From: an uncultured bacterium
GTDB taxonomy: Bacteria > Electryoneota > RPQS01
NCBI GenBank assembly: GCA_963735175.1
Contig: CAVTJX010000016.1
Coordinates: 272,909-336,908, forward strand
Length of the DNA stretch: 64,000 nucleotides
Reading direction: 5' to 3'
The position numbers and the translations under genes are program-made. Under the pieces are notes generated by a model, which was given only the letters and a program-made list of their open reading frames with translations, did no database searches and was not told where the DNA came from. Below, in pieces: positions 3,587 to 17,798 of this stretch (positions are counted from its first letter, which is position 1; every line of letters begins with the position of its first letter).

Positions 3587-3886
3587 TTACAGCATCCCCA
3601 GGCGCATGCGGGCTTCGTCGCTCATCATGTCGATGGACCACGGGGGGTCGAAGATCAGCTCGACATTGGCGTCGGTGATGCCGTCGACTTCGAGGATGGC
3701 GCGGCGCGCCATTTCGGTGATCGAACCGGCCATCGGGCAGCCCATCGTCGTCAGCGTCATCTTCACTTCGGCTTTCGTGCCGTCCACCTGCACGTCATAG
3801 ACGAGGCCGAGATCGGTCACGGGCAGCGCGAGTTCGGGATCGTAGACCTTGGCCAGCGCGTTATAGACATCTTCAATCGTTGCCAT
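3587..3886 (-). CDS. DUF59 / SufT-like metal-sulfur cluster assembly factor
   Basis: VYDPEL...DLGLVY...MTLTTMGCPMA...FDPPWS motif set. Confidence 0.92.
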   Translation of the reverse strand: MATIEDVYNALAKVYDPELALPVTDLGLVYDVQVDGTKAEVKMTLTTMGCPMAGSITEMARRAILEVDGITDANVELIFDPPWSIDMMSDEARMRLGML

Positions 3887-3906
3887 GGGGAATCCGGTTA
3901 ATACAC

Positions 3907-3931
3907 GGGCGGGTCTCAGACCCGCCCCTAC
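3907..3931 (-). repeat. GTAG-family REP palindrome
   Basis: minus strand GTAGGGGCGGGTCTGAGACCCGCCC: GTAG tetranucleotide plus hairpin, intergenic. Confidence 0.7.
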
Positions 3932-3940
3932 AGTACAAAA

Positions 3941-5022
3941 TTACGACACGGTCAGTCCGAGGCGGTCGCTGATTTGCGTGGCCAGCGATTCGTAAGAGGC
4001 GCGAAAGCTGCGGATCGGCCTCGATGGCGGAGGTCGGATCGCCACGGTCGGACGCCTCGACCAGCGCGGGCACCAGCGGAATCCGCGCCAGCAGCGGCAC
4101 ACCCAGCGCCCGCGCTTCACGCTCCGCCCCGCCCGTGCCGAAAATGTAGGTGGTCTCGTTGCAATGCGGGCAGGTGAAACCGGACATATTCTCGACAATG
4201 CCCAGAATGGGCACGTTCATCTTTTCAAACATCGCCACGCCCTTGCGCGCGTCGATGAGCGCGAGGTCCTGCGGCGTGGAGACGATCACCGCGCCGTCGA
4301 GCTCGACCTTCTGCGAGAGCGTCATCTGCGCGTCGCCCGTGCCCGGCGGCAAATCGACAATCAGAATATCCAGCTCGCCCCATTCGACGTCGCGCAGAAA
4401 TTGCTCGGTGGCCTGATGCACCATCGGCCCGCGCCAGATCATCGGCGTACCGGGATCGACCAGGAAACCCATCGACATCAGTTTCATGCCGCATGCGGTC
4501 GAGGGGCTGAATTTTATTGTCGATCACCTTCGGCGTTTCGCGCAGACCCATGATCGTGGGCACGCTGGGGCCGTAGATATCAAAGTCCACGAGACCGACG
4601 CGGAAGCCGCGCTTCTGCAGCATCAGCGCGAGGCCCGCGGCTACGGTGCTCTTCCCCACTCCGCCCTTGCCCGACGCCACGGCAATTTTTAGACGCACGC
4701 CCGGCAGCAACGGCTCCGTCGAGGGCGGCGAACCGTGCGGCGCGTGTTGCGGCGGCGCATCCGGCTGCGACCAATTCATGTCCACATGGACTTCGCGCAC
4801 ACCGGCGAGCGTACTCAGCGCGCTGCTGATGTCGTTCTCGATGGTGACGGGCACGTTGGGATCTTTGGACGAGAGCTTCACCTGCACATGCACGACGCCA
4901 TTCTGAATTTCCACGCCCTTAATCAATCCGAAGGACACAATGTCCCGCGAGAGCTTCGGGAATTTCACGGTTTTCAGCGTTTCGAGGATCTGTTCCTGCG
5001 TAAGAGTGGGGGACGCGGACAA
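3941..5022 (-). CDS. apbC: Mrp/NBP35 (ApbC) Fe-S cluster carrier ATPase (frameshifts near 4497 and 4005)
   Basis: N-terminal DUF59-like [52 protein letters not shown]; probable TTG start at 5022. Confidence 0.92.
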
Positions 5023-5053
5023 CGGCAGCTTCTCCGGATGATCAAATTGCGCT

Positions 5054-5082
5054 AATATACCGATAATTCTGCTTCGAGTCAA
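5054..5082 (-). promoter_or_regulatory. sigma70-type promoter for mrp/apbC
   Basis: TTGACT-N17-TATATT on the minus strand, about 30 nt upstream of the start. Confidence 0.7.
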
Positions 5083-5151
5083 GGCACCTGCATCATCGTA
5101 AGCGCCTGTTAACGAATAGGGTAAGGAAACACCACGCAGCATCCTCGCACG

Positions 5152-5217
5152 CTTAGGCGGCGGGCTCTGTCCCGCCGCATACACAGGGCGCGCAACGGGA
5201 CGGAGCCCGTTGCCTAA
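5152..5217. repeat. REPIN-like doublet of inverted REP palindromes
   Basis: TAGGCGGCGGGCTCTGTCCCGCCGC, spacer, GCAACGGGACGGAGCCCGTTGCCTA; near-identical copy at 18923-18990. Confidence 0.85.
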
Positions 5218-5250
5218 CCGGACCATGATACGCCATGTATTTTACGCAGC

Positions 5251-6680: not shown

Positions 6681-7904
6681 ATGCACGCAACTGTCGGGAT
6701 TACAATATTTTGCCTCATCATCGTGGGGGGGTCCGGCAGAGCCGAAACTCCATCGAGTGATCCCCGGCAGTTACTGGATTCCCTCCGGCGGGAGCTTTTG
6801 CAGGTCGAGAGGGAGTTAGAGACAGGGCAGAGTTCGGAGCGGGATGCGCTTTCGGATCTGGACGCAGCCGAGCGGCAGACCGCCCTGCTGGAACAGTTGA
6901 TCCGCACGCAACAGGGCCAGGCGCGGATCGCCACAGACAGCGTTATGACCCTCGAACGCGAGCTGGATCTGAGCGAACAGCACCTGGCGCAACTGGGCGT
7001 CAGCCTGCTGGATCTGGAGGACGACCAAGCCCAACTCGAGCAGTCTCTGGCGCGGGTGCTTCTGGCGGAGCGGCGTCTGTCGGCCTGGACCTCGCTGGAG
7101 TTCTTGCTCGGCTCGCGCTCCTGGCGCGAATTATTAGCGCGGCGCGTCGTTCTGGCGCGATTGCAACGAACGGAACGCCGGGCCCTATCCGCATTGGGGG
7201 CGGCGGTGGACACGTTGCAGGAGGTCGAAAGCGACGTTTTTCAGCGGACTCAGGAATTGCGCGCGCAGCGCCAGGCACTGCTGATACAACAGCAGCGGGC
7301 GTCCGGGATCGAGGTTTCTTTGCAGGCGGATGTCGCCGCTTTGGCGGCCCGGAAAACCGCTGACAAAGCCCGCTTGAAGCGCATCCGCAAAGACCAGAAA
7401 TTTTTATCGGCGCGGCAGCTGGAGCTGAGGCAGGCTGAGGACGCGATTCAGGAGCTGATCGCCCGTGGCGCTCGCGGCGAACCGCTGGCGGGAATGCCGC
7501 TGGTCACGCAGAAAGGCCGCTTGCCATGGCCGTGCGCCGGCCGCCTGGCACAGGGATTCGGCCTTGTGAAAAACCGCGAAACGGAAACGCAAACCGACAA
7601 TCCGGGCATCGATATTAGCACCGCCTCCGGCGCGGAAGTCAGCGCGGTTTCCGACGGCCGCGTCTCTTCCATCACGTGGCTGCGCGGTTACGGCAACGTG
7701 TGCATTCTCGAACATCCGGGGGCGTTCTTCACGGTCTACGCCAAGCTGGGGCAGATCGTGGTCCAATCCAACGATACCATTAAGGCAGGCGCGGTCCTTG
7801 GTTACGCCGGCTATGACGCGGCCGCCGAGGATCACCGGGTACATTTCGAATTATGGTCAGGAAAAGAGAAGAAGAATCCTCTGGAGTGGCTCGCGCCGCG
7901 TTGA
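6681..7904 (+). CDS. envC: EnvC-like murein hydrolase activator (coiled coil plus M23/LytM domain)
   Basis: signal peptide, long coiled coil, KGRLPWP, NPGIDI, GYGNVCILEH, HFELW...NPLEWL; NxGxD in place of HxGxD indicates a degenerate LytM site. Confidence 0.85.
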   Translation: MHATVGITIFCLIIVGGSGRAETPSSDPRQLLDSLRRELLQVERELETGQSSERDALSDLDAAERQTALLEQLIRTQQGQARIATDSVMTLERELDLSEQHLAQLGVSLLDLEDDQAQLEQSLARVLLAERRLSAWTSLEFLLGSRSWRELLARRVVLARLQRTERRALSALGAAVDTLQEVESDVFQRTQELRAQRQALLIQQQRASGIEVSLQADVAALAARKTADKARLKRIRKDQKFLSARQLELRQAEDAIQELIARGARGEPLAGMPLVTQKGRLPWPCAGRLAQGFGLVKNRETETQTDNPGIDISTASGAEVSAVSDGRVSSITWLRGYGNVCILEHPGAFFTVYAKLGQIVVQSNDTIKAGAVLGYAGYDAAAEDHRVHFELWSGKEKKNPLEWLAPR

Positions 7905-9124
7905 ACCGCCTACACTGGCAGCAGGTGGTGGGACAAACCCGATTGCGCACACAACTGGCCGACAGTCTGCGCGCGAGCCGGGCTGCGCACGCCAGTCTCT
8001 TCGCCGGGCCGTCGGGCGTGGGGAAGGCGGCGGTGGCGCTGGAATACGCCGCCCTGCTGCTGTGCGAACGTGACGGGCTCGCGCCCTGCGGCGAGTGTCC
8101 GCAATGCCACGCAACGGCCCGCCTCGAGCATCCGGATTTACATCTGATCTTCCCGCTTCCATCCACCGCCAAGAAGGCCGGTGAACGCGAAAACGGCATA
8201 GGCAGTTCCACGGATGAGGACCCATCCATCGCCGTTGCCGAACGTGTCACGCAGCTCACGGCGGCCCTCGCCCGTGATCCCTACACGCCCGTGGTGCTGC
8301 CCAAGGGCAAGCGGCAGAAGGACGATCCCAAGACCAAGAACGAACCGCAGTCGATCCGCATCGAGCAGATCCGCAGTGTGCTGCGCTGGGCGGCGTTGAA
8401 GCCCTTCAGCGCGCCCCGCAAAGTATTTTTGATTTTTCAGGCGGATACGATGAATCACGCGGCGCAAAACGCGCTGCTGAAAGCGCTCGAAGAGCCTTCA
8501 CCCGAAGCCTATTTTCTGTTGATCGCCGAAAACGAACCGCTTTTGCTGCCGACGATTCGCTCACGTTGCCAGGGCTTGCGTCTGGCGCCATTGCCTCGCG
8601 ATGAAATTCGCGCGGCATTGATCGCGGGCGGCATCAGCCCGGAGCGCGCCGACGCGGCGGCGGCCCTCTGCGGCGGCCGGCTGGTGCGGGCGCGGGAAAT
8701 GGCCGGCAGTGATTTGCCTAAGCTGCAAGAACATGTGATCGCCTACTTGCGCGCGGCCGCCAAATGTGATCCGGCGATGATCATGGACACCACATCCAAA
8801 TTGATGGACATGGGCGATCAGCCCGGTGAGACCGCGCTCGAAATGCTCGGCCTCTTTTTACGCGATGTGTCCATATCCCGCGCCGGAAATGAAGCCGCCA
8901 CTATCCTGACGTTCGCTGAATTTACGGAGCCGATGGCGCGGTTGCTGAACTCGTATCCCGCGGCGGACTTTGAAACCGCGGCCCGACTCGTGGACCAGTC
9001 CGCCAATTACTTAACGCGGGGCTATACGCAGGACCTGGTGATGTACGCGCTGGCCATTCGGCTGCACGCGGCACTCGGTCCGTTAGTCCCCACTAAACCC
9101 AAACCCCAGGTCCGGCATGCTTGA
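7901..9124 (+). CDS. holB: DNA polymerase III subunit delta-prime
   Basis: HASLFAGPSGVGK, zinc motif LLC..PCGECPQC, HPDL, AQNALLKALEEP, LLPTIRSRCQ; TTGA overlap with envC. Confidence 0.92.
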   Translation: MNRLHWQQVVGQTRLRTQLADSLRASRAAHASLFAGPSGVGKAAVALEYAALLLCERDGLAPCGECPQCHATARLEHPDLHLIFPLPSTAKKAGERENGIGSSTDEDPSIAVAERVTQLTAALARDPYTPVVLPKGKRQKDDPKTKNEPQSIRIEQIRSVLRWAALKPFSAPRKVFLIFQADTMNHAAQNALLKALEEPSPEAYFLLIAENEPLLLPTIRSRCQGLRLAPLPRDEIRAALIAGGISPERADAAAALCGGRLVRAREMAGSDLPKLQEHVIAYLRAAAKCDPAMIMDTTSKLMDMGDQPGETALEMLGLFLRDVSISRAGNEAATILTFAEFTEPMARLLNSYPAADFETAARLVDQSANYLTRGYTQDLVMYALAIRLHAALGPLVPTKPKPQVRHA

Positions 9125-10277
9125 TATATTGGAACTTGAATTCAAGGGGCGGCGCAAGGAATATGCGCTGAACCCGCTGCAATTCCCGTTTCAGGTGGGT
9201 GATCCGGCGATTCTCGAAGTCGATCGCGGACACGACCTTGGCCGGATCAGCCACCTCGGCTGGCGTCCCGGCATCGAAAGCGACCAGACGCCGACACTGA
9301 CGGTGTTGCGCAAGGCCGCCACCGCCGATCTGAAAATGCTCGAGGGCAACCGCGAGCGCGAGACCGACGCCCGCACCGTCGCCCGCCAGAAGATCCACGA
9401 CCACAACCTCGACATGAAGCTGGTGGATGTGGAGCTGCAGTGGGATGGCCGGAAGATGACGTTCTATTTCACCGCCGAGGGCCGCGTCGACTTCCGCGAA
9501 CTGGTGAAGGATCTGGCTTCGACCTTTCGAACGCGCATCGACCTGAGGCAGATCGGCGCGCGCGACGAAACCAAGCGCACCGGCGGTTACGGCGTGTGCG
9601 GGCGGCCATTGTGCTGCTCGACATTTCTGAACGAGTTCAAGCCGATCACGACGCAGATGCCGCGCGACCAGTTCCTGCCGCTCAATCCATCCAAGCTGTC
9701 GGGAGTCTGCGGCCGGTTGAAGTGCTGCCTACGCTATGAACTGGACGTGTATCGCGAATTCCAGCGTTCGTGTCCGAAGGTCGGCCATCCGGTGCGCGAC
9801 GACGTAAAGGGCGACGGCGCGATCGACAAGCTCGACGTAATCCGCGAGCAGATCCAGGTCCGCTTCGCCAGCGGCGACACAGAAAAATATTCAACGGCGG
9901 AATTCATTGAGCTTTCCAACTGGCGGCCCGAGATGCCGAAAAACGAGTGCATCTGCACGTGCGGCCGCAAACCGCCCGCTATTCCCGCCCAGCCTGTCGT
10001 GACGACCGTGGATGAACCGGTCTTTCCCGAGGCCGGACTGCGCAAGGGCGAGCGCGTGACGCTGCTGCCGGGCGGCGGCCTTGGGATGCAAAGCGGCGCC
10101 GGCGGCGAAGAGATCCAGGTGGGTACCAACGCGCCCCTTCCCCAGGCCGCCGCCGGACCGGCCAAGAAGAAGCGCAAGCGCCGCCGCGGCAAGAAAAAAC
10201 CCACCGACTCGACTGGCAATCCGCCGGCCGCCAACGCCCCGGCTCCGGATGCCGACGACGAAGACGACGACGATTAA
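9117..10277 (+). CDS. ricT: PSP1-domain protein RicT/YaaT
   Basis: FYFTAEGRVDFRELVKDLA, RQIGARDE, CGRPLCC, LSGVCGRLKCCLRYE; typical holB-yaaT-metG context. Confidence 0.92.
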   Translation: MLDILELEFKGRRKEYALNPLQFPFQVGDPAILEVDRGHDLGRISHLGWRPGIESDQTPTLTVLRKAATADLKMLEGNRERETDARTVARQKIHDHNLDMKLVDVELQWDGRKMTFYFTAEGRVDFRELVKDLASTFRTRIDLRQIGARDETKRTGGYGVCGRPLCCSTFLNEFKPITTQMPRDQFLPLNPSKLSGVCGRLKCCLRYELDVYREFQRSCPKVGHPVRDDVKGDGAIDKLDVIREQIQVRFASGDTEKYSTAEFIELSNWRPEMPKNECICTCGRKPPAIPAQPVVTTVDEPVFPEAGLRKGERVTLLPGGGLGMQSGAGGEEIQVGTNAPLPQAAAGPAKKKRKRRRGKKKPTDSTGNPPAANAPAPDADDEDDDD

Positions 10278-10325: not shown

Positions 10326-12255
10326 ATGAGTACCTATTACGTCACGACGCCAATCTACTATGTGAACGCCGACCCGCACATCGGGACGGCATACACCACG
10401 GTGCTGGCCGACACGGTCGCGCGCTATCACCGGCTGCTTGGCGACGACACGTTTTTCCTGACGGGTACGGACGAGCACGGCGACAAGATCGCGCGCTCGG
10501 CCGCCGCCCGCGGTATCGAACCTCAGCAATTCGTGAATGAGGTCAGCGCCCGCTTCCGGGCGCTCTGGCCCGAACTGCTGGTCTTCCCCGACCGCTTTAT
10601 CCGCACCACCGACCCCGCGCACGTCCGGCTGGTGCAGGAGATTTTGCAGCGCGTCTACGACAAGGGCGACATTTACTTCTCAGAGTATGGCGGTCTTTAC
10701 TGCACCGGCTGCGAACGCTTTCTGATGGAGAAGGAACTGGTCGACGGTAAGTGCCCCGATCACCTCACGGCGCCGGAATTCGTGCAGGAGCAGAACTATT
10801 TCTTCCGCATGGGGCGCTATCAGCAGTGGCTGCTGGACTACATCGACAAGCACCCGGACTTCATTCGCCCCGAACGTTACCGCAACGAGGTGCTGGGCTT
10901 TTTACGCGAGCCGCTGGAAGATCTTCTGCATCTCGCGCCCGAAGACGCGCCTGACATGGGGTATCGAGATTCCCTTCGACAGCAATTTTGTCACCTACGT
11001 CTGGTTTGACGCGCTGTTGAACTACCTGACGGGTATCGACTACGGCTCAGGTGAAACGTGGGAAGCCGCGTGGCGCAACGTGGAACACCTGATTGGCAAG
11101 GATATTCTTAAGCCGCACGCGATTTACTGGCCGACGATGCTGCACGCAGCGGGCATCGCGCCGTTCCAGCACCTCACCGTGCACGGCTATTGGAATTTCA
11201 AGGACGCGAAGATATCAAAATCCGCGGGAAAGCCCGTGGGCGTGCCGCCGCTCTTGAGCGCCTTCGGCGCGGACGCGCTGCGCTATTTTCTGATGCGCGA
11301 CATGGTGGTGGGACTCGACGCGAAATTCACGCCGGAGCTGTTGGTGCAGCGCATCAACAGCGATCTCGCCAACGACCTGGGCAATCTGCTCTCGCGCATC
11401 GCCAAGCTGGTCAGCGACCATTTTGACAGCCGGATTCCTCCGGCAGGAGAGCCGGAGAGCAGCCTGCGGGAGATGGCGCAATTTCTTGTTCGCGACGTGC
11501 CCGCCTATATCAGCGACTTCCGCCTGCACGCGCTGATCGAAGAGACGATGCAGCTCGTGCGGGCCACGAACCGTTACTTCGAATCGTCCGCGCCGTGGGC
11601 GCTGGCGAAGACCGATAAGCAGCGCTGCGGCGAAGTGCTCTACGAATGCGCCGAGGCGCTGCGCATCGCCGCCGTGATCCTCTACCCCGTAATGCCCGGC
11701 AAGATGGCGAGACTACTCAGCCGCCTGGGAGAGCCCGTGGAGAACTTCCGCCTCGCCGACGCCGCCGCCTGGGGCCGCCTGCGCGCGGGCGCGCGGCTGG
11801 AAGCGGGCGAGCCGCTGTTTCCGCGCATCGACGAAGCTGAACTGGCGAAGACGCTGCCCGAACTCTTCGGCAACGGCTCACCCAAAACCACTCCGGCTCC
11901 GCCCCCTCTGCCGCTGCCGGAAAACGTCGTAGAGTTGATCGAGATCCAGGACTTTGCGAAAGTCCAACTCCGCGTCGCCAAGGTGCTCGCTGCCGAAAAG
12001 CTGGCAAACACCGACAAATTGCTGCGGCTGCAAGTCGATATCGGCGGCGCCACTCGGCAGATCGTCGCCGGCATCGCGCAATTTTACTCGGCCGAGGAAA
12101 TGGTGGGCCGGTTGATCGTTGTCGTCGCCAATCTGAAACCGGTCAAACTACGCGGCGAACTTTCCGAAGGCATGCTACTGGCCGCCAAGGCCGATGGCAA
12201 ACTCGTTCTCTTGTCCGTGGACGGCGAAGTCTGTTCCGGTTCGACCATCAGTTAA
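10326..12255 (+). CDS. metG: methionine--tRNA ligase with C-terminal tRNA-binding domain (frameshift near 10925)
   Basis: TTPIYYVNADPHIG, TGTDEHG, YVWFDAL in the shifted frame, GKDIL, KISKS, NLKPVKLRGELSEGMLL. Confidence 0.96.
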
Positions 12256-12257
12256 CC

Positions 12258-13721
12258 ATGACCGCGATTCCCGTTTCCCCCTCGCTGGGCGAATGCCTGG
12301 CAACATTCGAAGGCCGGCGCGCGCTCGTCATCGACGACGGTCGCGGCGGCTATCTCGACTTGATCGCGCAGCGCTACGACGAAGCGCATCTCGTGCAGGC
12401 GTTTTCCGCCGCCATCTCCGCGAAGCGCGCGCTCGATACGCCGGATAACGTCAAATTCTCCGCGTGGCAGGGAGCGGAGTTGCCGTTTGCCGCCGACGCG
12501 TTCGATGCGGTGTTTCTCGTCCATACCCTCGGCCGCGTGACCGACCGCGCCGCGCTGATTGGCGACTGCCTGCGCGTTTTAAAGCAGCGCGCGCCGCTCG
12601 TGGCTTTGGAATTCAGCCTCGCCGTCAGCACTCCGCGGCAGATTAATCTGCTCAGTCTCGAGCGGCTGCTGCGCGACCGCGACGAAGCCCTGCGCGGCGA
12701 ACCGCTCCCGTGGCTCGCGAGTGAGGATCTGCAGCGTGAACTGCGCGCGCTTGATTTGCACCACTTGCGTTACCTCGATATCTCGCCCGAACAAACCAGC
12801 GGTACGGCCTTGGCCGAATTGAAACGCGAATCGCTGGAACGGATTAAGCTCGATTTACTGCCGTCGCTCAGCCGCCTCGGAGAGCAGCGCGACGCGTTCG
12901 AGCACCGGCTGATCGAGATCAAGCGCGCCATCGAACTCACGGGCGTCGCGCCGCTGGGGCACGTGCTGGTTTACGGGGTGAAGAAAACCGTGTACGCGGC
13001 GACGGAAGCGTCGCTCTTCGCCTCGGTACCCCTTACGCCCGAACCCGCCCGGCCGGCAGCGCTTGCGACCGGCGCCGACATGCCGCCCCTCCCCGCGTCA
13101 CCCGCGGCCGCCATCGAAACGCTCTCCACCGGGGAGCTGTTGTCGCTGATTTTCACCGGCGGCGAATCGCAGTCGCGGCTCGAACGCCTGGCGGCCCGCA
13201 TTCTGCGTGAATATGGCTCGCGGGCCGTGGCCGCCGAACGCAACCCGCAGGCGTTAGTCGAGACGTTCGGCATCGGTTACGCGCAGGCGCTGCAGATCGT
13301 GGCCGCTTTCGAACTGGGCCGCCGCTTCTTCGCCGCCGACGCGGACGCGCCCGTGCTGCGCGGTCCGGAGGATATTTTCCAATTCGCCGCCGAAATGGGC
13401 AAGCTCAAGCGCGAGCAGTTTCGCGGCCTCTATCTCGACAACCGCCAGCGCCTCGTAGCCGACGAGGTCATCTCCATCGGTACGCTGACGAGCGCGATCC
13501 TCCATCCGCGCGAAGTCTTCCGCCCCGCCTTCTCGCATAACGCGGTCTCGATGGTGCTGGTGCACAATCATCCCAGCGGCGACGCCGAACCTTCGAACGA
13601 GGACATCGAGATGACGCGGCAGCTTTCCAAGGCCGGACAAATCCTTGGCATCGAACTGCTCGACCACGTCATCATCGGCGGCGACATCTGGTACAGCATG
13701 AAAAACGCCAGCCTCTTTTGA
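12258..13721 (+). CDS. radC: fusion of class I SAM-methyltransferase-like domain and RadC (JAB/MPN) domain
   Basis: N-terminal VIDDGRGG...LPFAADAFDAVF...CLRVLK; C-terminal LSTGELL, REQFRGLYLD, HPREVF, HNHPSGD...SNED, LLDHVII. Confidence 0.85.
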   Translation: MTAIPVSPSLGECLATFEGRRALVIDDGRGGYLDLIAQRYDEAHLVQAFSAAISAKRALDTPDNVKFSAWQGAELPFAADAFDAVFLVHTLGRVTDRAALIGDCLRVLKQRAPLVALEFSLAVSTPRQINLLSLERLLRDRDEALRGEPLPWLASEDLQRELRALDLHHLRYLDISPEQTSGTALAELKRESLERIKLDLLPSLSRLGEQRDAFEHRLIEIKRAIELTGVAPLGHVLVYGVKKTVYAATEASLFASVPLTPEPARPAALATGADMPPLPASPAAAIETLSTGELLSLIFTGGESQSRLERLAARILREYGSRAVAAERNPQALVETFGIGYAQALQIVAAFELGRRFFAADADAPVLRGPEDIFQFAAEMGKLKREQFRGLYLDNRQRLVADEVISIGTLTSAILHPREVFRPAFSHNAVSMVLVHNHPSGDAEPSNEDIEMTRQLSKAGQILGIELLDHVIIGGDIWYSMKNASLF

Positions 13722-13746: not shown

Positions 13747-13780
13747 GAGGCGCACCCCGCAAGGTGCGCCTCATCTGTAT
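13747..13780. terminator. hairpin between convergent radC fusion and kinase genes
   Basis: GAGGCGCACC-CCGCAA-GGTGCGCCTC, preceded by an A-rich stretch. Confidence 0.65.
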
Positions 13781-13836: not shown

Positions 13837-15933
13837 CTACCGCCTCGGTAGCGAGACCGTAAACGCCGCGCCCTTGCCCTTCTCCGATTCGACGCTGATC
13901 TTGCCACCCGCCGTTTCAATCATGTTGCGGCTGAGATACAGCCCTAATCCCGTACCCTGCCCCGAGGCGCGGAAGGTGAAGAACGGTTCAAATATCTGCG
14001 GCAGGTGCTCGGCCGCGATACCCACGCCGGTATCGCGCACGGTCAGCTCCACCGTCTCCGGCAGGGCATGCGTGGAAACAGCGAGGTCTCCACCCTGCGG
14101 CATAGCGTCGATGGCGTTCAGCATCAGATTCAGCACGACTTGCTGGAGTTCCTGCGGCGAACCGGAGACCGGCGGCAATTGCGGCTCGAGGTTCAGACTC
14201 AGCCGCACGTTGCGCTCGTGCAGCTGTTGCTTCAATAGCGCCGCCATGGATTCGGTCACATCGTTTAAATGGACCGCCGCGGTTTCCGTCGGCGCGCGAT
14301 GCAGGTTCAACATGCTATTGACGATGTGCCGCAGACGTTCGACGCCCTGCTCGATCAGGCGCAGGCTTTCGGCGGGATCTTCGCGCGCGGCAATTTTCGA
14401 CTGTGCCATCTTGAGCTGCGAGACCATCGCCTGCAGGGGATTGCTGATTTCGTGGGCCACGCCCGCCGCCAGACGCCCCGTCGCCGCGAGGCGCTCCGCC
14501 GTAACGAGCTGTTGCAGCAGCACGCGATGTTCCGTAATATCGCGGAGGATCCCCTGCGTGCTGTGCACCGCTCCGCCCGGCCGCACAACCGTGCGATTGA
14601 TCTCCAGCGTGCGCTTGTCACCCTGGCGCGTCACCAGTTCCACGTGATGCACGGCGTGATCGGCTACACACTCCGCCAATTCCTGCAGCGCGCGGTGGTT
14701 GATGGGATTTTCCGTCATCAAGTCTTCCAGCATCCGCCGCAGCGTCCGTCCGAGATAACTGTCGCGCCCATAGCCGAGCACGCGCGTGAAAGCGTCGTTC
14801 AGGTATGTCAGGCGGTCGTTAGCGTCGGTGACGTAAACGATGTCGGTGGTCGCATTGACGAGGCGGCTGAAACGCTCCTCGGAAATTCGCAGCTCCTGCG
14901 TCCGCTCTTCAAACAGCCGCTCGAGGTCGGCGGTGTGATGCGTCAGCGTGTCGCGCAGCTCGTGCGCTTCGAGATGCAGCGCGCCGTGGCCGAGCAGCAC
15001 TTCCATCAGGCGCACGATTTCCGCCACCGGGCGCGCGCCGTCGACCGGACCTTCCAGCGAGAGATAGCCGAAGACGCCGCCGTCCTGCCGGAACATCGGC
15101 AGAAACAGGTTGTCGCCCGCCTGCCAGCGATCCTGCGGTTCAGCGACTTCGAAGCGCTCGCGTGGGAAATGCGCGTAAATAGCCGTGCCGATGCGCTCGT
15201 CGTCGCGGTCGAATTCATAGGGTCGCAACGGCTGATCCAGCAGCGCCTGAAGTTGCGCGCGCCGCGTGCTTTCGCCGCCTTCCTCCCAGAATCCGACATG
15301 CCGCACGCGAAAGCGCGCGTCGGCCAGCAGCAGCACCGCGCGGCGATACGCGCCCGCCTCCACCACCGCCTGGCACAGGAAGTCGAGCAGCCGCGACTCG
15401 GGTTCCTTGCGGCCGATCTCCGAGCTGATGTGGAAAAGGTGTTCGAGGATCCGCTGATAGCGCTGCGATTCGACCGTGCGCTCGACCACCGTTTCCGTCA
15501 GCGCCGCGTTGTGGGCTTCGAGACGCCGCGCATAGTCACGGTTTTGCAGTTCGAGCCGCTTGACCTCCGCCGCGCGCTCGATCAGCACCGCGATTTCCTT
15601 GAGTGATGCGAACGGCTTCTTGATGAACGAAAACGCCTGATCGGCAAAGGCGGCGATCACGTCGTCGAGATCCGCCTGCCCCGACATCAGGATCTTGGCC
15701 ATTCCCGGGAAACGGCTGTTCAGTTCCTGCTGCAATTCACGTCCGTCCCGGCCGGGGAGCTGAATATCAAGCAACGCCACCTGAATCTCGGAAAGATCCG
15801 GCAGCGCCAGCGCGTCTTCGGCGGTCTCCACGGCCTGTACAACCATGCCGCGGCCTTCCAGAAAGCTGCGCAGCAGTTCGCGGATATGCAGTTCGTCGTC
15901 GACAATCAGGACTTTGAGCGGCGTTTCGGGCAT
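13837..15933 (-). CDS. hybrid sensor histidine kinase (REC-GAF-like-PAS-HisKA-HATPase)
   Basis: VLIVDDE, LLDIQLPG, KPF; PAS YVTDANDRLTYLNDAF; H-box AHEISNPL, NLMLNAIDA, DTGVGI, GTGLGL. Confidence 0.93.
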   Translation of the reverse strand: MPETPLKVLIVDDELHIRELLRSFLEGRGMVVQAVETAEDALALPDLSEIQVALLDIQLPGRDGRELQQELNSRFPGMAKILMSGQADLDDVIAAFADQAFSFIKKPFASLKEIAVLIERAAEVKRLELQNRDYARRLEAHNAALTETVVERTVESQRYQRILEHLFHISSEIGRKEPESRLLDFLCQAVVEAGAYRRAVLLLADARFRVRHVGFWEEGGESTRRAQLQALLDQPLRPYEFDRDDERIGTAIYAHFPRERFEVAEPQDRWQAGDNLFLPMFRQDGGVFGYLSLEGPVDGARPVAEIVRLMEVLLGHGALHLEAHELRDTLTHHTADLERLFEERTQELRISEERFSRLVNATTDIVYVTDANDRLTYLNDAFTRVLGYGRDSYLGRTLRRMLEDLMTENPINHRALQELAECVADHAVHHVELVTRQGDKRTLEINRTVVRPGGAVHSTQGILRDITEHRVLLQQLVTAERLAATGRLAAGVAHEISNPLQAMVSQLKMAQSKIAAREDPAESLRLIEQGVERLRHIVNSMLNLHRAPTETAAVHLNDVTESMAALLKQQLHERNVRLSLNLEPQLPPVSGSPQELQQVVLNLMLNAIDAMPQGGDLAVSTHALPETVELTVRDTGVGIAAEHLPQIFEPFFTFRASGQGTGLGLYLSRNMIETAGGKISVESEKGKGAAFTVSLPRR

Positions 15934-15939
15934 GACCTT

Positions 15940-16980
15940 CTATGCTTCGAGGTGCTTTAAAATTATTTCGGCGGCAGGTTTGATTGCCTCAGCCGCAATA
16001 TCCAGATGCGTGACCAGGCGGAACTTCGCGGCGCCTTCGGGGAAGAAGAGTACGCCGTCCGCAGCGCAGCGGCGCGTCAGTTCCGGGGCGTCGATTTTGC
16101 TGCGCGTAATCTCCACGATCAAAATGTTGGTCTGCACCGGCCGCTCGATCTCCACCTTACCGCTTTCGAGCAGCAGCGTTGTCAGCTCCTGGGCTTTGGC
16201 ATGATCTTCGGCGAGGCGCACGCGGTGGTTATCGAGCGCGTACAGCGCCGCCGCCGCCAGAATACCCATCTGCCGCATGCCACCACCGAAGAGCTTGCGG
16301 TAGCGGTGCGCGCGGACGATAAAATCCGCCGTGCCCGCCACCATGCTGCCCACCGGAGCGCCGAGGCCCTTGGAAAAGCAGACCGACACCGTATCGGCGT
16401 GCGTCGCAAAATCGATTTCGGGCCGGCCCAGCGCGACGGCGGCGTTCCACAGTCGCGCGCCGTCCATGTGCATCACCAGCTTTTTAGCGCGCGCCACGGC
16501 GGCGATACGGGCGAGTTCGGCCGGATCGTAACACGTGCCGCTGCCACGGTTGTGCGTATTTTCCACGGCGACCATCACCGTCGGCGAAACGTGGTCGCGC
16601 CCGCCATGCACCGCTGCCGCGATCTGATCGGCCGTCAGAATTCCCCGCTTGCCCGCGAGCGGCCGCAGTTGGACGCCGCTTAACAGCGCGGGCGCGCCGC
16701 CTTCGTAGTTCAGGATATGCGCCTGTTCGTCCAGCAGCACTTCGTCGCCGGGCCGCGTCTGCGCGGCGAGGCACACCTGGTTGCCCATCGTGCCGCTGGG
16801 GACGAACAGCGCAGCTTCCTTGCCAAGCAGTTCCGCGACCCGCTTCTGCAAGCGATTCGCCGTGGGATCCTCGTCAAAGCAGTCGTCGCCCACCTCGGCT
16901 TCCGCCATGGCTTTTCGCATAGCGGCAGTGGGGCGGGTCACGGTATCGCTGCGCAGGTCGATGGGGAAAAAGTCGCTCAT
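15940..16980 (-). CDS. ltaE: low-specificity L-threonine aldolase
   Basis: [49 protein letters not shown]; start trimmed to ATG 16980. Confidence 0.94.
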
Positions 16981-17048
16981 GGGTTCTCGCTGGGTGATAC
17001 TGGATGCAAAAGCCGAGCCCGCTGTTCCAGACTGGCCCGGTAGAATTG

Positions 17049-17081
17049 CACAGGGACCGACTTGGCACGCCGGTCCCTGTG
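17049..17081. other. intergenic perfect inverted repeat (11-bp stem)
   Basis: CACAGGGACCG-11 nt-CGGTCCCTGTG between elbB and ltaE. Confidence 0.5.
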
Positions 17082-17132
17082 TCAGTTCAAGTGGAGATGT
17101 CGCCGTCTCGAAACACCGACGGACCGCGGCGG

Positions 17133-17798
17133 TCAGCTGTTGGTCATGGCCAATAGTTCCGCGACCAGGTGTTCGATCCCGCGCGCAACTTCGGAGATGC
17201 GGGTCTGGCACATGTAAGCCGGAGTGGAGACGATGCGATGCTCCCGATCTACCACCGCCTCGCTGGCCGTCGCCACGACGTGCCGGCCGCCGAAGGCTTC
17301 CAGGCTGGCCGAAGCTCCCGAGGCAGCGCCCACGGTCAGTTGTGGATGCAGACTTTGCCCCTTGAAGGCGCGGGCGAAAACGACAGGCGAAATGCAAATC
17401 AGACCGATGGGTTTCGCGGTCTGCATCCACGCCTGGAGGAATGATTCCACGAGCGGCAGAATTGCGCAATCATCGCCTTTGACGGCATAGTCGCAGTAGT
17501 TTTTCGCCGCGCCGAAGCCGCCGGGAAAGACTACCGCATCAAGCTTGTCGACCCACGCGTTACTTAACGGTTCGATCTTGCCGCGCGCGAGGCGCGCCGC
17601 TTCGATCAGCACGTTGCGACTTTCGCCGGTGGATTCACCCGTGCGGTGATTGACTACATGCAGCTGCGTGACGTCAGGCGCGAGGCATTGCACCGTCACA
17701 TCGGCACGATCCAGCGCCAGGAGCGTCAGTACCGATTCGTAGATCTCGGCGCCATCCAGAAAGCCGCAACCCGCCAACACGACACCTACGGTCTTCAT
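17133..17798 (-). CDS. elbB: ElbB / ES1 family DJ-1/PfpI-like glyoxalase
   Basis: [48 protein letters not shown]. Confidence 0.93.

Follow-up and report, generated by a model that had tools for sequence, protein, structure and literature searches.

The gene analysed here lies in a window of 64,000 nucleotides (nt) of DNA from an uncultured bacterium (GTDB lineage Bacteria; Electryoneota; RPQS01), which is the whole stretch studied and covers positions 272,909 to 336,908 of the forward strand of contig CAVTJX010000016.1 (assembly GCA_963735175.1). The gene occupies 12258..13721 of the plus strand as a single, uninterrupted open reading frame (ORF) of 487 amino acids (aa), and its ATG stands 2 nt past the TAA stop (12253-12255) of metG. 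Pfam, NCBIfam and homolog matches divide the protein into a methyltransferase-like domain, a linker and a RadC protein. The first domain, of the class I S-adenosylmethionine (SAM) methyltransferase fold, covers residues 1-245 (12258..12992, plus strand) and carries a degenerate motif I (IDDGRGG); it was assigned from Pfam, an AlphaFold2 model and structure matches. It is followed by a Pro/Ala-rich disordered linker at residues 246-285 (12993..13112), which is variable in the alignment and holds the peptide EASLF at residues 250-254 (13005..13019). The RadC portion consists of a helical region of helix-hairpin-helix (HhH) type (UPF0758_N; residues 286-365, 13113..13352) and a JAB domain with the full metal motif of E386, H436-N-H438-P-S-G, S446 and D449 (residues 366-487, 13353..13718).

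The Pfam family Methyltransf_11 (PF08241) matched residues 28-112 with 32.0 bits against a gathering cut-off of 21.2, and the RadC JAB family (PF04002) matched residues 368-484 with an E-value of 1.7e-42. The NCBIfam RadC equivalog NF000642 matched residues 285-485 along profile positions 8-210 of 212 with 195.9 bits, against a cut-off of 180, while UPF0758_N (PF20582) gave a partial match (profile positions 20-76 of 77) of 18.2 bits, under its cut-off of 27.1. The metal ligands E386, H436, H438, S446 and D449 were invariant in 48 of 48 aligned homologs. These results bear out the sequence-only reading of this DNA made earlier, which had described one ORF of 487 aa lying 2 nt after the metG stop and an intact RadC with a complete metal motif; the strings which it quoted, among them VIDDGRGG (residues 24-31), LPFAADAFDAVF and CLRVLK, are all found in the translation. 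Stand-alone RadC/YicR proteins (UPF0758; PF20582 with PF04002; NF000642; structure 2qlc) share the helical region, the JAB domain and the E...HxH...S..D motif with the fusion, which differs from them by about 285 extra N-terminal residues and lacks ~7-19 positions at the start of the RadC N-terminal profile. The missing part includes PRE[KR]L, the canonical N-terminal motif of RadC. Its absence, which had been taken to favour a true fusion, is genuine in the window clade, where the stretch is replaced; it says nothing for or against the fusion because other fused clades have it (for example the rows reading 'KPREKL').

The AlphaFold2 model, built on the alignment of 48 sequences, reached a mean predicted local distance difference test score (pLDDT) of 87.2, with most of the N-terminal domain above 90. 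This domain was modelled as a seven-stranded alpha/beta fold with the strand order of methyltransferases (strands at residues 19-26, 40-47, 65-69, 84-88, 113-119, 167-175 and 235-242) and with helical inserts at residues 126-164 and 182-228. The Pro/Ala-rich linker, also foreseen from the sequence, was recovered within residues 250-282 as a segment with pLDDT below 50 (at 250-252 and 255-282), and the helices of the RadC helical region fell within residues 291-358. The comparison of residues 1-245 with class I methyltransferases gave Z-scores of 16-18.6, with LahSB, 3dh0, 3mgg, YcgJ and DhpI among the matches, so that the Rossmann methyltransferase fold proposed for the N-terminal domain is present. 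The JAB domain superposed on the solved RadC structure 2qlc with a Z-score of 20.6 and a root mean square deviation of 1.7 Å over 121 residues (Foldseek template modelling score 0.88), and its profile match to the same structure had an E-value of 3.8e-50. The complex prediction of the N-terminal domain (residues 1-250) with the RadC part (residues 283-487) scored 0.01 and 0.00, the mark being 0.32, and weighs neither for nor against a contact of the two parts.

The profile matches of the N-terminal domain to solved structures were best for PMT, YcgJ and RebM-type proteins, at about E 1e-12. Stand-alone Methyltransf_11/UbiE-like methyltransferases with a helical lid, namely the proteins P0125 and P0129 and the structures of YcgJ (1xxl), 3mgg, TTHA0223 (2yqz) and RebM (3bus), have the same seven-stranded fold with helical inserts. 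P0125 and P0129 (238-239 aa) align over the whole N-terminal domain including the lid, with 25-27% identity over ~230 residues, and the solved stand-alone enzymes resemble it at Z-scores of 16.6-18.3. The two stand-alone proteins score 73-77 bits to PF08241 compared to 32 bits for the fused domain. The nearest relatives of the domain are small-molecule methyltransferases and not DNA or RNA methyltransferases. The earlier suggestion that the fusion links RadC to nucleic-acid modification finds no support in this result, as the closest proteins (YcgJ, RebM, PMT and LahSB) are of the small-molecule or UbiE/Methyltransf_11 type. Among the structural matches were also the SpnF cyclase (4pne), RdmB (1qzz) and TamK (7pg7), which show no specific sequence kinship with the fused domain and which, going by their entry titles, would be methyltransferase-fold proteins that do not methylate. 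The N-terminal domain of anamorsin (PF20922), again a methyltransferase fold that would not methylate, gave a weak Pfam match in 5 of the 48 fused members. The ESM Atlas returned just generic methyltransferase clusters with scores of 0.81-0.83, under the 0.9 level.

The spread of the fusion was analysed by searching the full-length protein against 5.8 billion proteins, the relatives being described from the matches listed (best 120), and by comparison with 41 related genomes (labelled G001 and so on, with loci labelled L019 and so on). Among the matches listed were 20 proteins of 484-501 aa which are 48-59% identical over 98-100% of the query, together with farther full-length relatives at 30-38% identity; several source records name such homologs 'DNA repair protein RadC' with PF08241 and PF04002. 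A full-length, stop-free fused gene was found in the related genomes G010, G008, G001, G006, G013, G025 and G029, in G016 and G028 it runs into the end of a contig, and distant members of the same phylum (G033, G038, G040, G034 and G039) carry diverged open frames of 438-521 aa. Besides independent public assemblies, 16 of the related genomes show the one-ORF architecture. The junction check in related genomes which the sequence-only reading had proposed was run, and the full-length relatives read through without stops; a genuine two-gene form was not found among them. The apparent two-gene form in G026 was rejected because the split is a scaffold gap filled with N. With residues 1-250 as query, no homolog of the N-terminal domain was found at E <= 0.001 among proteins of 30-266 aa. 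The exhaustive search of the same residues against 1.84 billion representatives gave just 20 proteins at E <= 0.001, the stand-alone P0125 and P0129 among them; it also listed the short proteins P0121 (101 aa) and P0123 (244 aa), and the latter, close in sequence to the N-terminal part of the fused P0023, is taken for a probable cut-off copy.

At least 330 residues precede the HNHP motif in 73 of 122 RadC relatives, these 122 rows being the 120 best homolog matches with P0122 and P0124, limited to lengths of 267-853 aa. The quick FastTree phylogeny of the RadC module of these rows, which is unrooted, contains no canonical ~220-aa RadCs and does not separate one origin from several, clustered the fused forms: labels changed 4 times, compared to 38.4 times in shuffles. 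The fused forms occupy several clades, some with records labelled Delongbacteria and Cloacimonadota. The fusion is real and conserved, beyond chance given the two domain matches and the ~20 full-length orthologs, and it is independent of the quality of this assembly. The view that it is a true fusion rather than the product of a lost stop is in accordance with the same architecture in many independent assemblies and relatives.

The gene order is M23 peptidase, holB-like gene, PSP1-domain gene, metG and fusion gene, with an 8-nt overlap between the holB-like and PSP1 genes followed by gaps of 48 nt and 2 nt. The holB-like gene, of the DNA polymerase III delta' type, lies at 7853..9124 (PF13177, DNA_pol3_delta2, E 3.2e-45). 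The PSP1-domain gene lies at 9117..10277 (PF04468, E 2.3e-35) and is syntenic with metG in relatives, as judged by tblastn. At its C-terminal end the protein has a long Lys/Arg-rich segment and, behind it, a tail rich in Asp and Glu (KKKRKRRRGKKK...DADDEDDDD), a combination which is unusual for the PSP1 family. The methionyl-tRNA synthetase gene metG (10326..12255) is read in two ORFs, 10326..11009 with positions 1-141 of the tRNA-synt_1g profile and 11017..12255 with positions 254-390 of this profile, Anticodon_3 and tRNA_bind. Downstream of the fusion gene, the pattern scan revealed a GC-rich hairpin of 10 bp with 8 GC at 13747..13772 (plus strand), which is a consensus match only, its tail not being T-rich. 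A convergent gene for a hybrid response-regulator/PAS/histidine-kinase protein follows at 13837..15933 on the minus strand (Response_reg, PAS, HisKA and HATPase_c); it is a conserved syntenic neighbour and is outside the unit. The hairpin, lying between the convergent fusion and kinase genes, is the probable end of the operon, and from this arrangement we infer that the fusion gene would be co-transcribed as the last gene of a holB-PSP1-metG operon. Beyond the kinase gene lies an ORF of 509 aa (15940..17469, minus strand) with a Beta_elim_lyase domain from residue 170 and about 165 low-complexity residues before it, whose true start codon is probably further in.

Of the 14 related genomes that could be assessed, 12 have metG immediately before the fused gene, the exceptions being G033 and G038; two further genomes, cut by contig ends, are outside these 14. 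The Cloacimonadota-labelled locus L019 is without an upstream metG. Four close relatives (L100, L101, L104 and L105, with metG 68-69% identical) have metG, then ~75-85 nt (about 3721-3807 in each), and then the same convergent kinase gene, with no trace of the fusion gene in between. This clean absence indicates that the fusion gene is dispensable. Other genomes hold decayed forms of it: L159 (that is, G024) retains only an 83-aa JAB remnant at 3861-4109, the copy in G032 (C60:6483-7308) has two in-frame TAG stops, and G030 has a version of 397 aa downstream of metG (L099 2072..3265, minus strand) which comprises the N-terminal domain and the helical region, ends after AAFELGRRF and lacks the JAB domain. 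No PF04002 match was found anywhere in the G030 genome. In G030 an MBL-fold-like gene comes after the 397-aa gene. The Pfam model of RadC found no match in 17 of the 41 related genomes, including G002 and G031 (100% complete), G036 (99%, one contig), and G003 and G009 (98%). The window's own genome (3.30 Mb in 19 contigs, 82.8% complete) yielded no RadC besides the fusion. In G008 a second, stand-alone RadC (C154:2259-2618, in an open frame of 229 aa) was seen beside the fused one. The coupling to metG suggested earlier therefore holds in the physical sense, with metG upstream in most relatives, but it looks positional, the fusion gene being an optional tail of a generic housekeeping cluster and missing from close relatives in which metG stays.

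The conservation of the cofactor site was read from the motif I position in 21 close orthologs. The pattern [DE]xGxG is retained in 8 of them, the window protein being one, and motif I is lost in the other 13 (for example THTPSS, ENDAAK and ESERDT); the position reads IDDGRGG in the window protein and LDDGHHD, VTHTPSS, IENDAAK, VESERDT and similar strings in the others. In class I methyltransferases the acidic residue that ends strand beta2 binds the ribose hydroxyls. Where stand-alone proteins have ADAD, VDNR or VDAD at this position, the alignment shows a gap or QA--FS for the window clade, and unlike that clade the stand-alone P0125 and P0129 keep both the beta2 acid and a motif I of the form LD[LV]ATG[ES]G. 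The earlier proposal of a link to SAM binding is weakened by these two losses. Methyltransf_11 is matched at E <= 0.001 by 42 of the 48 fused proteins, and D83 of the FDxV strand is the sole residue of the N-terminal domain which is at least 90% conserved across the 48.

The constraint along the protein was expressed as the fraction of majority residues in the 21 orthologs. It was highest in the JAB domain (0.84), followed by residues 186-245 (0.75) and the helical RadC region (0.74); residues 121-185 had 0.58, the methyltransferase core 0.53 and the linker 0.42. The best-conserved part of the N-terminal domain is accordingly its C-terminal helical lid (residues 186-245). The identity with the copies in related genomes was 37-47% for the N-terminal half compared to 64-77% for the C-terminal half. 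Among 21 long RadCs with no or a sub-threshold Pfam methyltransferase match, 15 still matched the N-terminal domain profile with at least 94% probability, a result that fits a drifting pseudo-enzyme domain. The erosion pattern is that of a fold retained for a purpose outside SAM chemistry.

The explanation that we favour, and consider moderately probable as a whole, is that the protein is the lineage's own RadC with a pseudo-methyltransferase binding or regulatory module attached, made from the dispensable tail of a holB-PSP1-metG operon. In this explanation the single-copy RadC of the lineage, with its HhH-type helical region and intact zinc-type JAB domain, would long ago have gained an N-terminal domain from a small-molecule methyltransferase of UbiE/Methyltransf_11 type. 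In this clade the fold is kept while the SAM-binding loop has ceased to be conserved, and because of this the domain most likely methylates nothing; such a non-catalytic pseudo-methyltransferase would probably bind a ligand or a partner, or act as a regulatory module. The flexible linker of ~40 aa with its xSLF peptide would tether it to a metal-dependent JAB enzyme and a helical, DNA-associated region, the protein being produced from the last, tightly coupled gene of the operon. Of these elements, the fusion, its fold, the eroded motif, the synteny and the gene losses are observed, and the absence of catalysis, the binding or regulatory role and the co-transcription are inferred. Several points weigh against this explanation. 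The window protein itself has D-x-G-x-G-G (IDDGRGG), like 7 other close orthologs, and may itself bind SAM; in a more distant fused clade GxG is kept in 9 of 14 members and, from a reading of the alignment, the beta2-end acid in about 10 of 14. The AlphaFold2 model does not fix how the domains are arranged towards each other (predicted template modelling score 0.55), and the RadC part is presumed to be catalytic from its conserved metal ligands.

The same observations are the basis of a doubtful alternative, a working bifunctional enzyme or SAM sensor, in which the N-terminal domain would bind SAM and either methylate the substrate of RadC or gate RadC by the SAM level. The motif kept in the window protein and the GxG kept in some fused clades would be expected of such a protein, as would the Methyltransf_11 match above the Pfam cut-off, present in most fused proteins, and the intact fold with its high pLDDT; the metG neighbourhood adds a loose thematic tie to methionine and SAM. 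Against this, the motif has gone from the majority of the close orthologs, the beta2 acid has no counterpart in the window clade, and besides D83 no residue of the domain reaches 90% conservation in the fused proteins. The metG cluster is moreover a generic housekeeping cluster from which the gene has been deleted in close relatives.

The linker contributes a further, more specific proposal. All 24 proteins that make up the window clade and its sister clade (P0001-P0023 and P0122) carry the motif [E/G/Q/D]-x-[S/T/P/N]-L-F at one and the same position, right behind the last strand of the N-terminal domain (GxKKTxY), and the remaining linker is variable and disordered. The motif reads EASLF in the window protein and QPSLF, QPNLF or QPTLF in the sister clade, and it was not found at that position in any other RadC relative scanned. 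The bacterial clamp-binding pentapeptide has the consensus QL(S/D)LF in the account of PMC9690074. EASLF fits it at positions 3-5 and has E instead of Q at position 1, and the x[S/T/P]LF peptide thus appears to resemble a sliding-clamp-binding motif. The titles and abstract openings of the papers listed for RadC and the sliding clamp report no interaction between the two. It is conceivable, though unlikely, that the peptide docks to the beta sliding clamp, so that RadC, encoded beside the clamp-loader gene holB, would be recruited to the clamp at sites of replication or repair, and the pseudo-methyltransferase would regulate the JAB enzyme by binding a ligand or a partner.

A very unlikely reading takes the N-terminal domain to be a functionless relic on a gene drifting to loss. 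The repeated loss and decay of the gene, seen in the clean deletions, the 83-aa JAB remnant, the copy with two TAG stops and the JAB-less form, agree with such a drift, as does the faster evolution of the N-terminal domain relative to RadC. An intact frame across more than 20 lineages, with 37-47% identity, and a fold that is predicted with confidence would not be expected of a relic, and the conservation of residues 186-245 is about that of the HhH region (0.75 compared to 0.74); G030 moreover lost the JAB domain yet kept the N-terminal domain and the HhH region. An artefact of the assembly, in which an indel or the loss of a stop would have joined two genes and for which the two frameshifted genes nearby might speak, has a negligible probability and is effectively refuted by the recurrence of the one-ORF architecture in independent assemblies and related genomes, by the scaffold gap behind the sole apparent split and by the missing short homologs of the N-terminal domain among proteins of 30-266 aa at E <= 0.001.

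The two frameshifts lie in housekeeping genes within ~8 kb of the fusion and suggest that the assembly is indel-prone, which may be part of the cause of its completeness estimate of 82.8%. In metG the reading frame shifts by 1 nt immediately behind the LEDL codons (near 10925-10930), in a stretch that relatives translate without a break as LEDLCISRP; it is likely an assembly indel because no further metG was found in the genome. The other case is a gene of Mrp/ApbC type (FeS_assembly_P with ParA/NUBPL; 3873..5226, minus strand), which is split in two overlapping ORFs, with ParA profile positions 2-70 on 4225..5226 and 73-235 on 3873..4487.

RadC has been found fused to other domains before. 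The published partners are HhH, ArdC and DnaG-type primase domains and a DinG/RAD3 helicase, as given in passages of Iyer et al. 2011 (PMC3239186) and of a review on DinG (PMC11981726). As in the present protein, a single polypeptide combines the RadC JAB domain with a further domain in these cases, and the fusions are usable as contextual evidence of function. They differ in that the published partners act on DNA and are often found on mobile elements, whereas the partner seen here has a small-molecule-type methyltransferase fold with an eroded cofactor site and is encoded in a housekeeping operon. No methyltransferase partner is mentioned in the passages on RadC fusions of PMC3239186 and PMC11981726, and no paper describing this architecture was found, although the supplementary lists of domain architectures in Iyer et al. 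2011 and 2017 may contain it. The earlier statement that no description of the architecture is known thus stands for the literature found, but not for the databases, where PF08241 with PF04002 is already present under the name RadC.

The biochemical role of RadC is still presented as open in the relevant passages of PMC3239186, PMC5512222 and PMC11981726, and its function is still called unknown where a 2025 review treats it. RadC is among the most widespread bacterial proteins of unknown function, and conserved fusions are one of the few handles on it. What the fusion described here adds is a small new clue to RadC, not a new enzyme system, and since the partner domain is degenerate and of small-molecule type, it gives no pointer to the substrate. 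The fusion shows a whole uncultured lineage which uses a dispensable RadC with a methyltransferase-shaped domain seemingly stripped of its cofactor site, and the conserved linker peptide provides a directly testable candidate for sliding-clamp binding.

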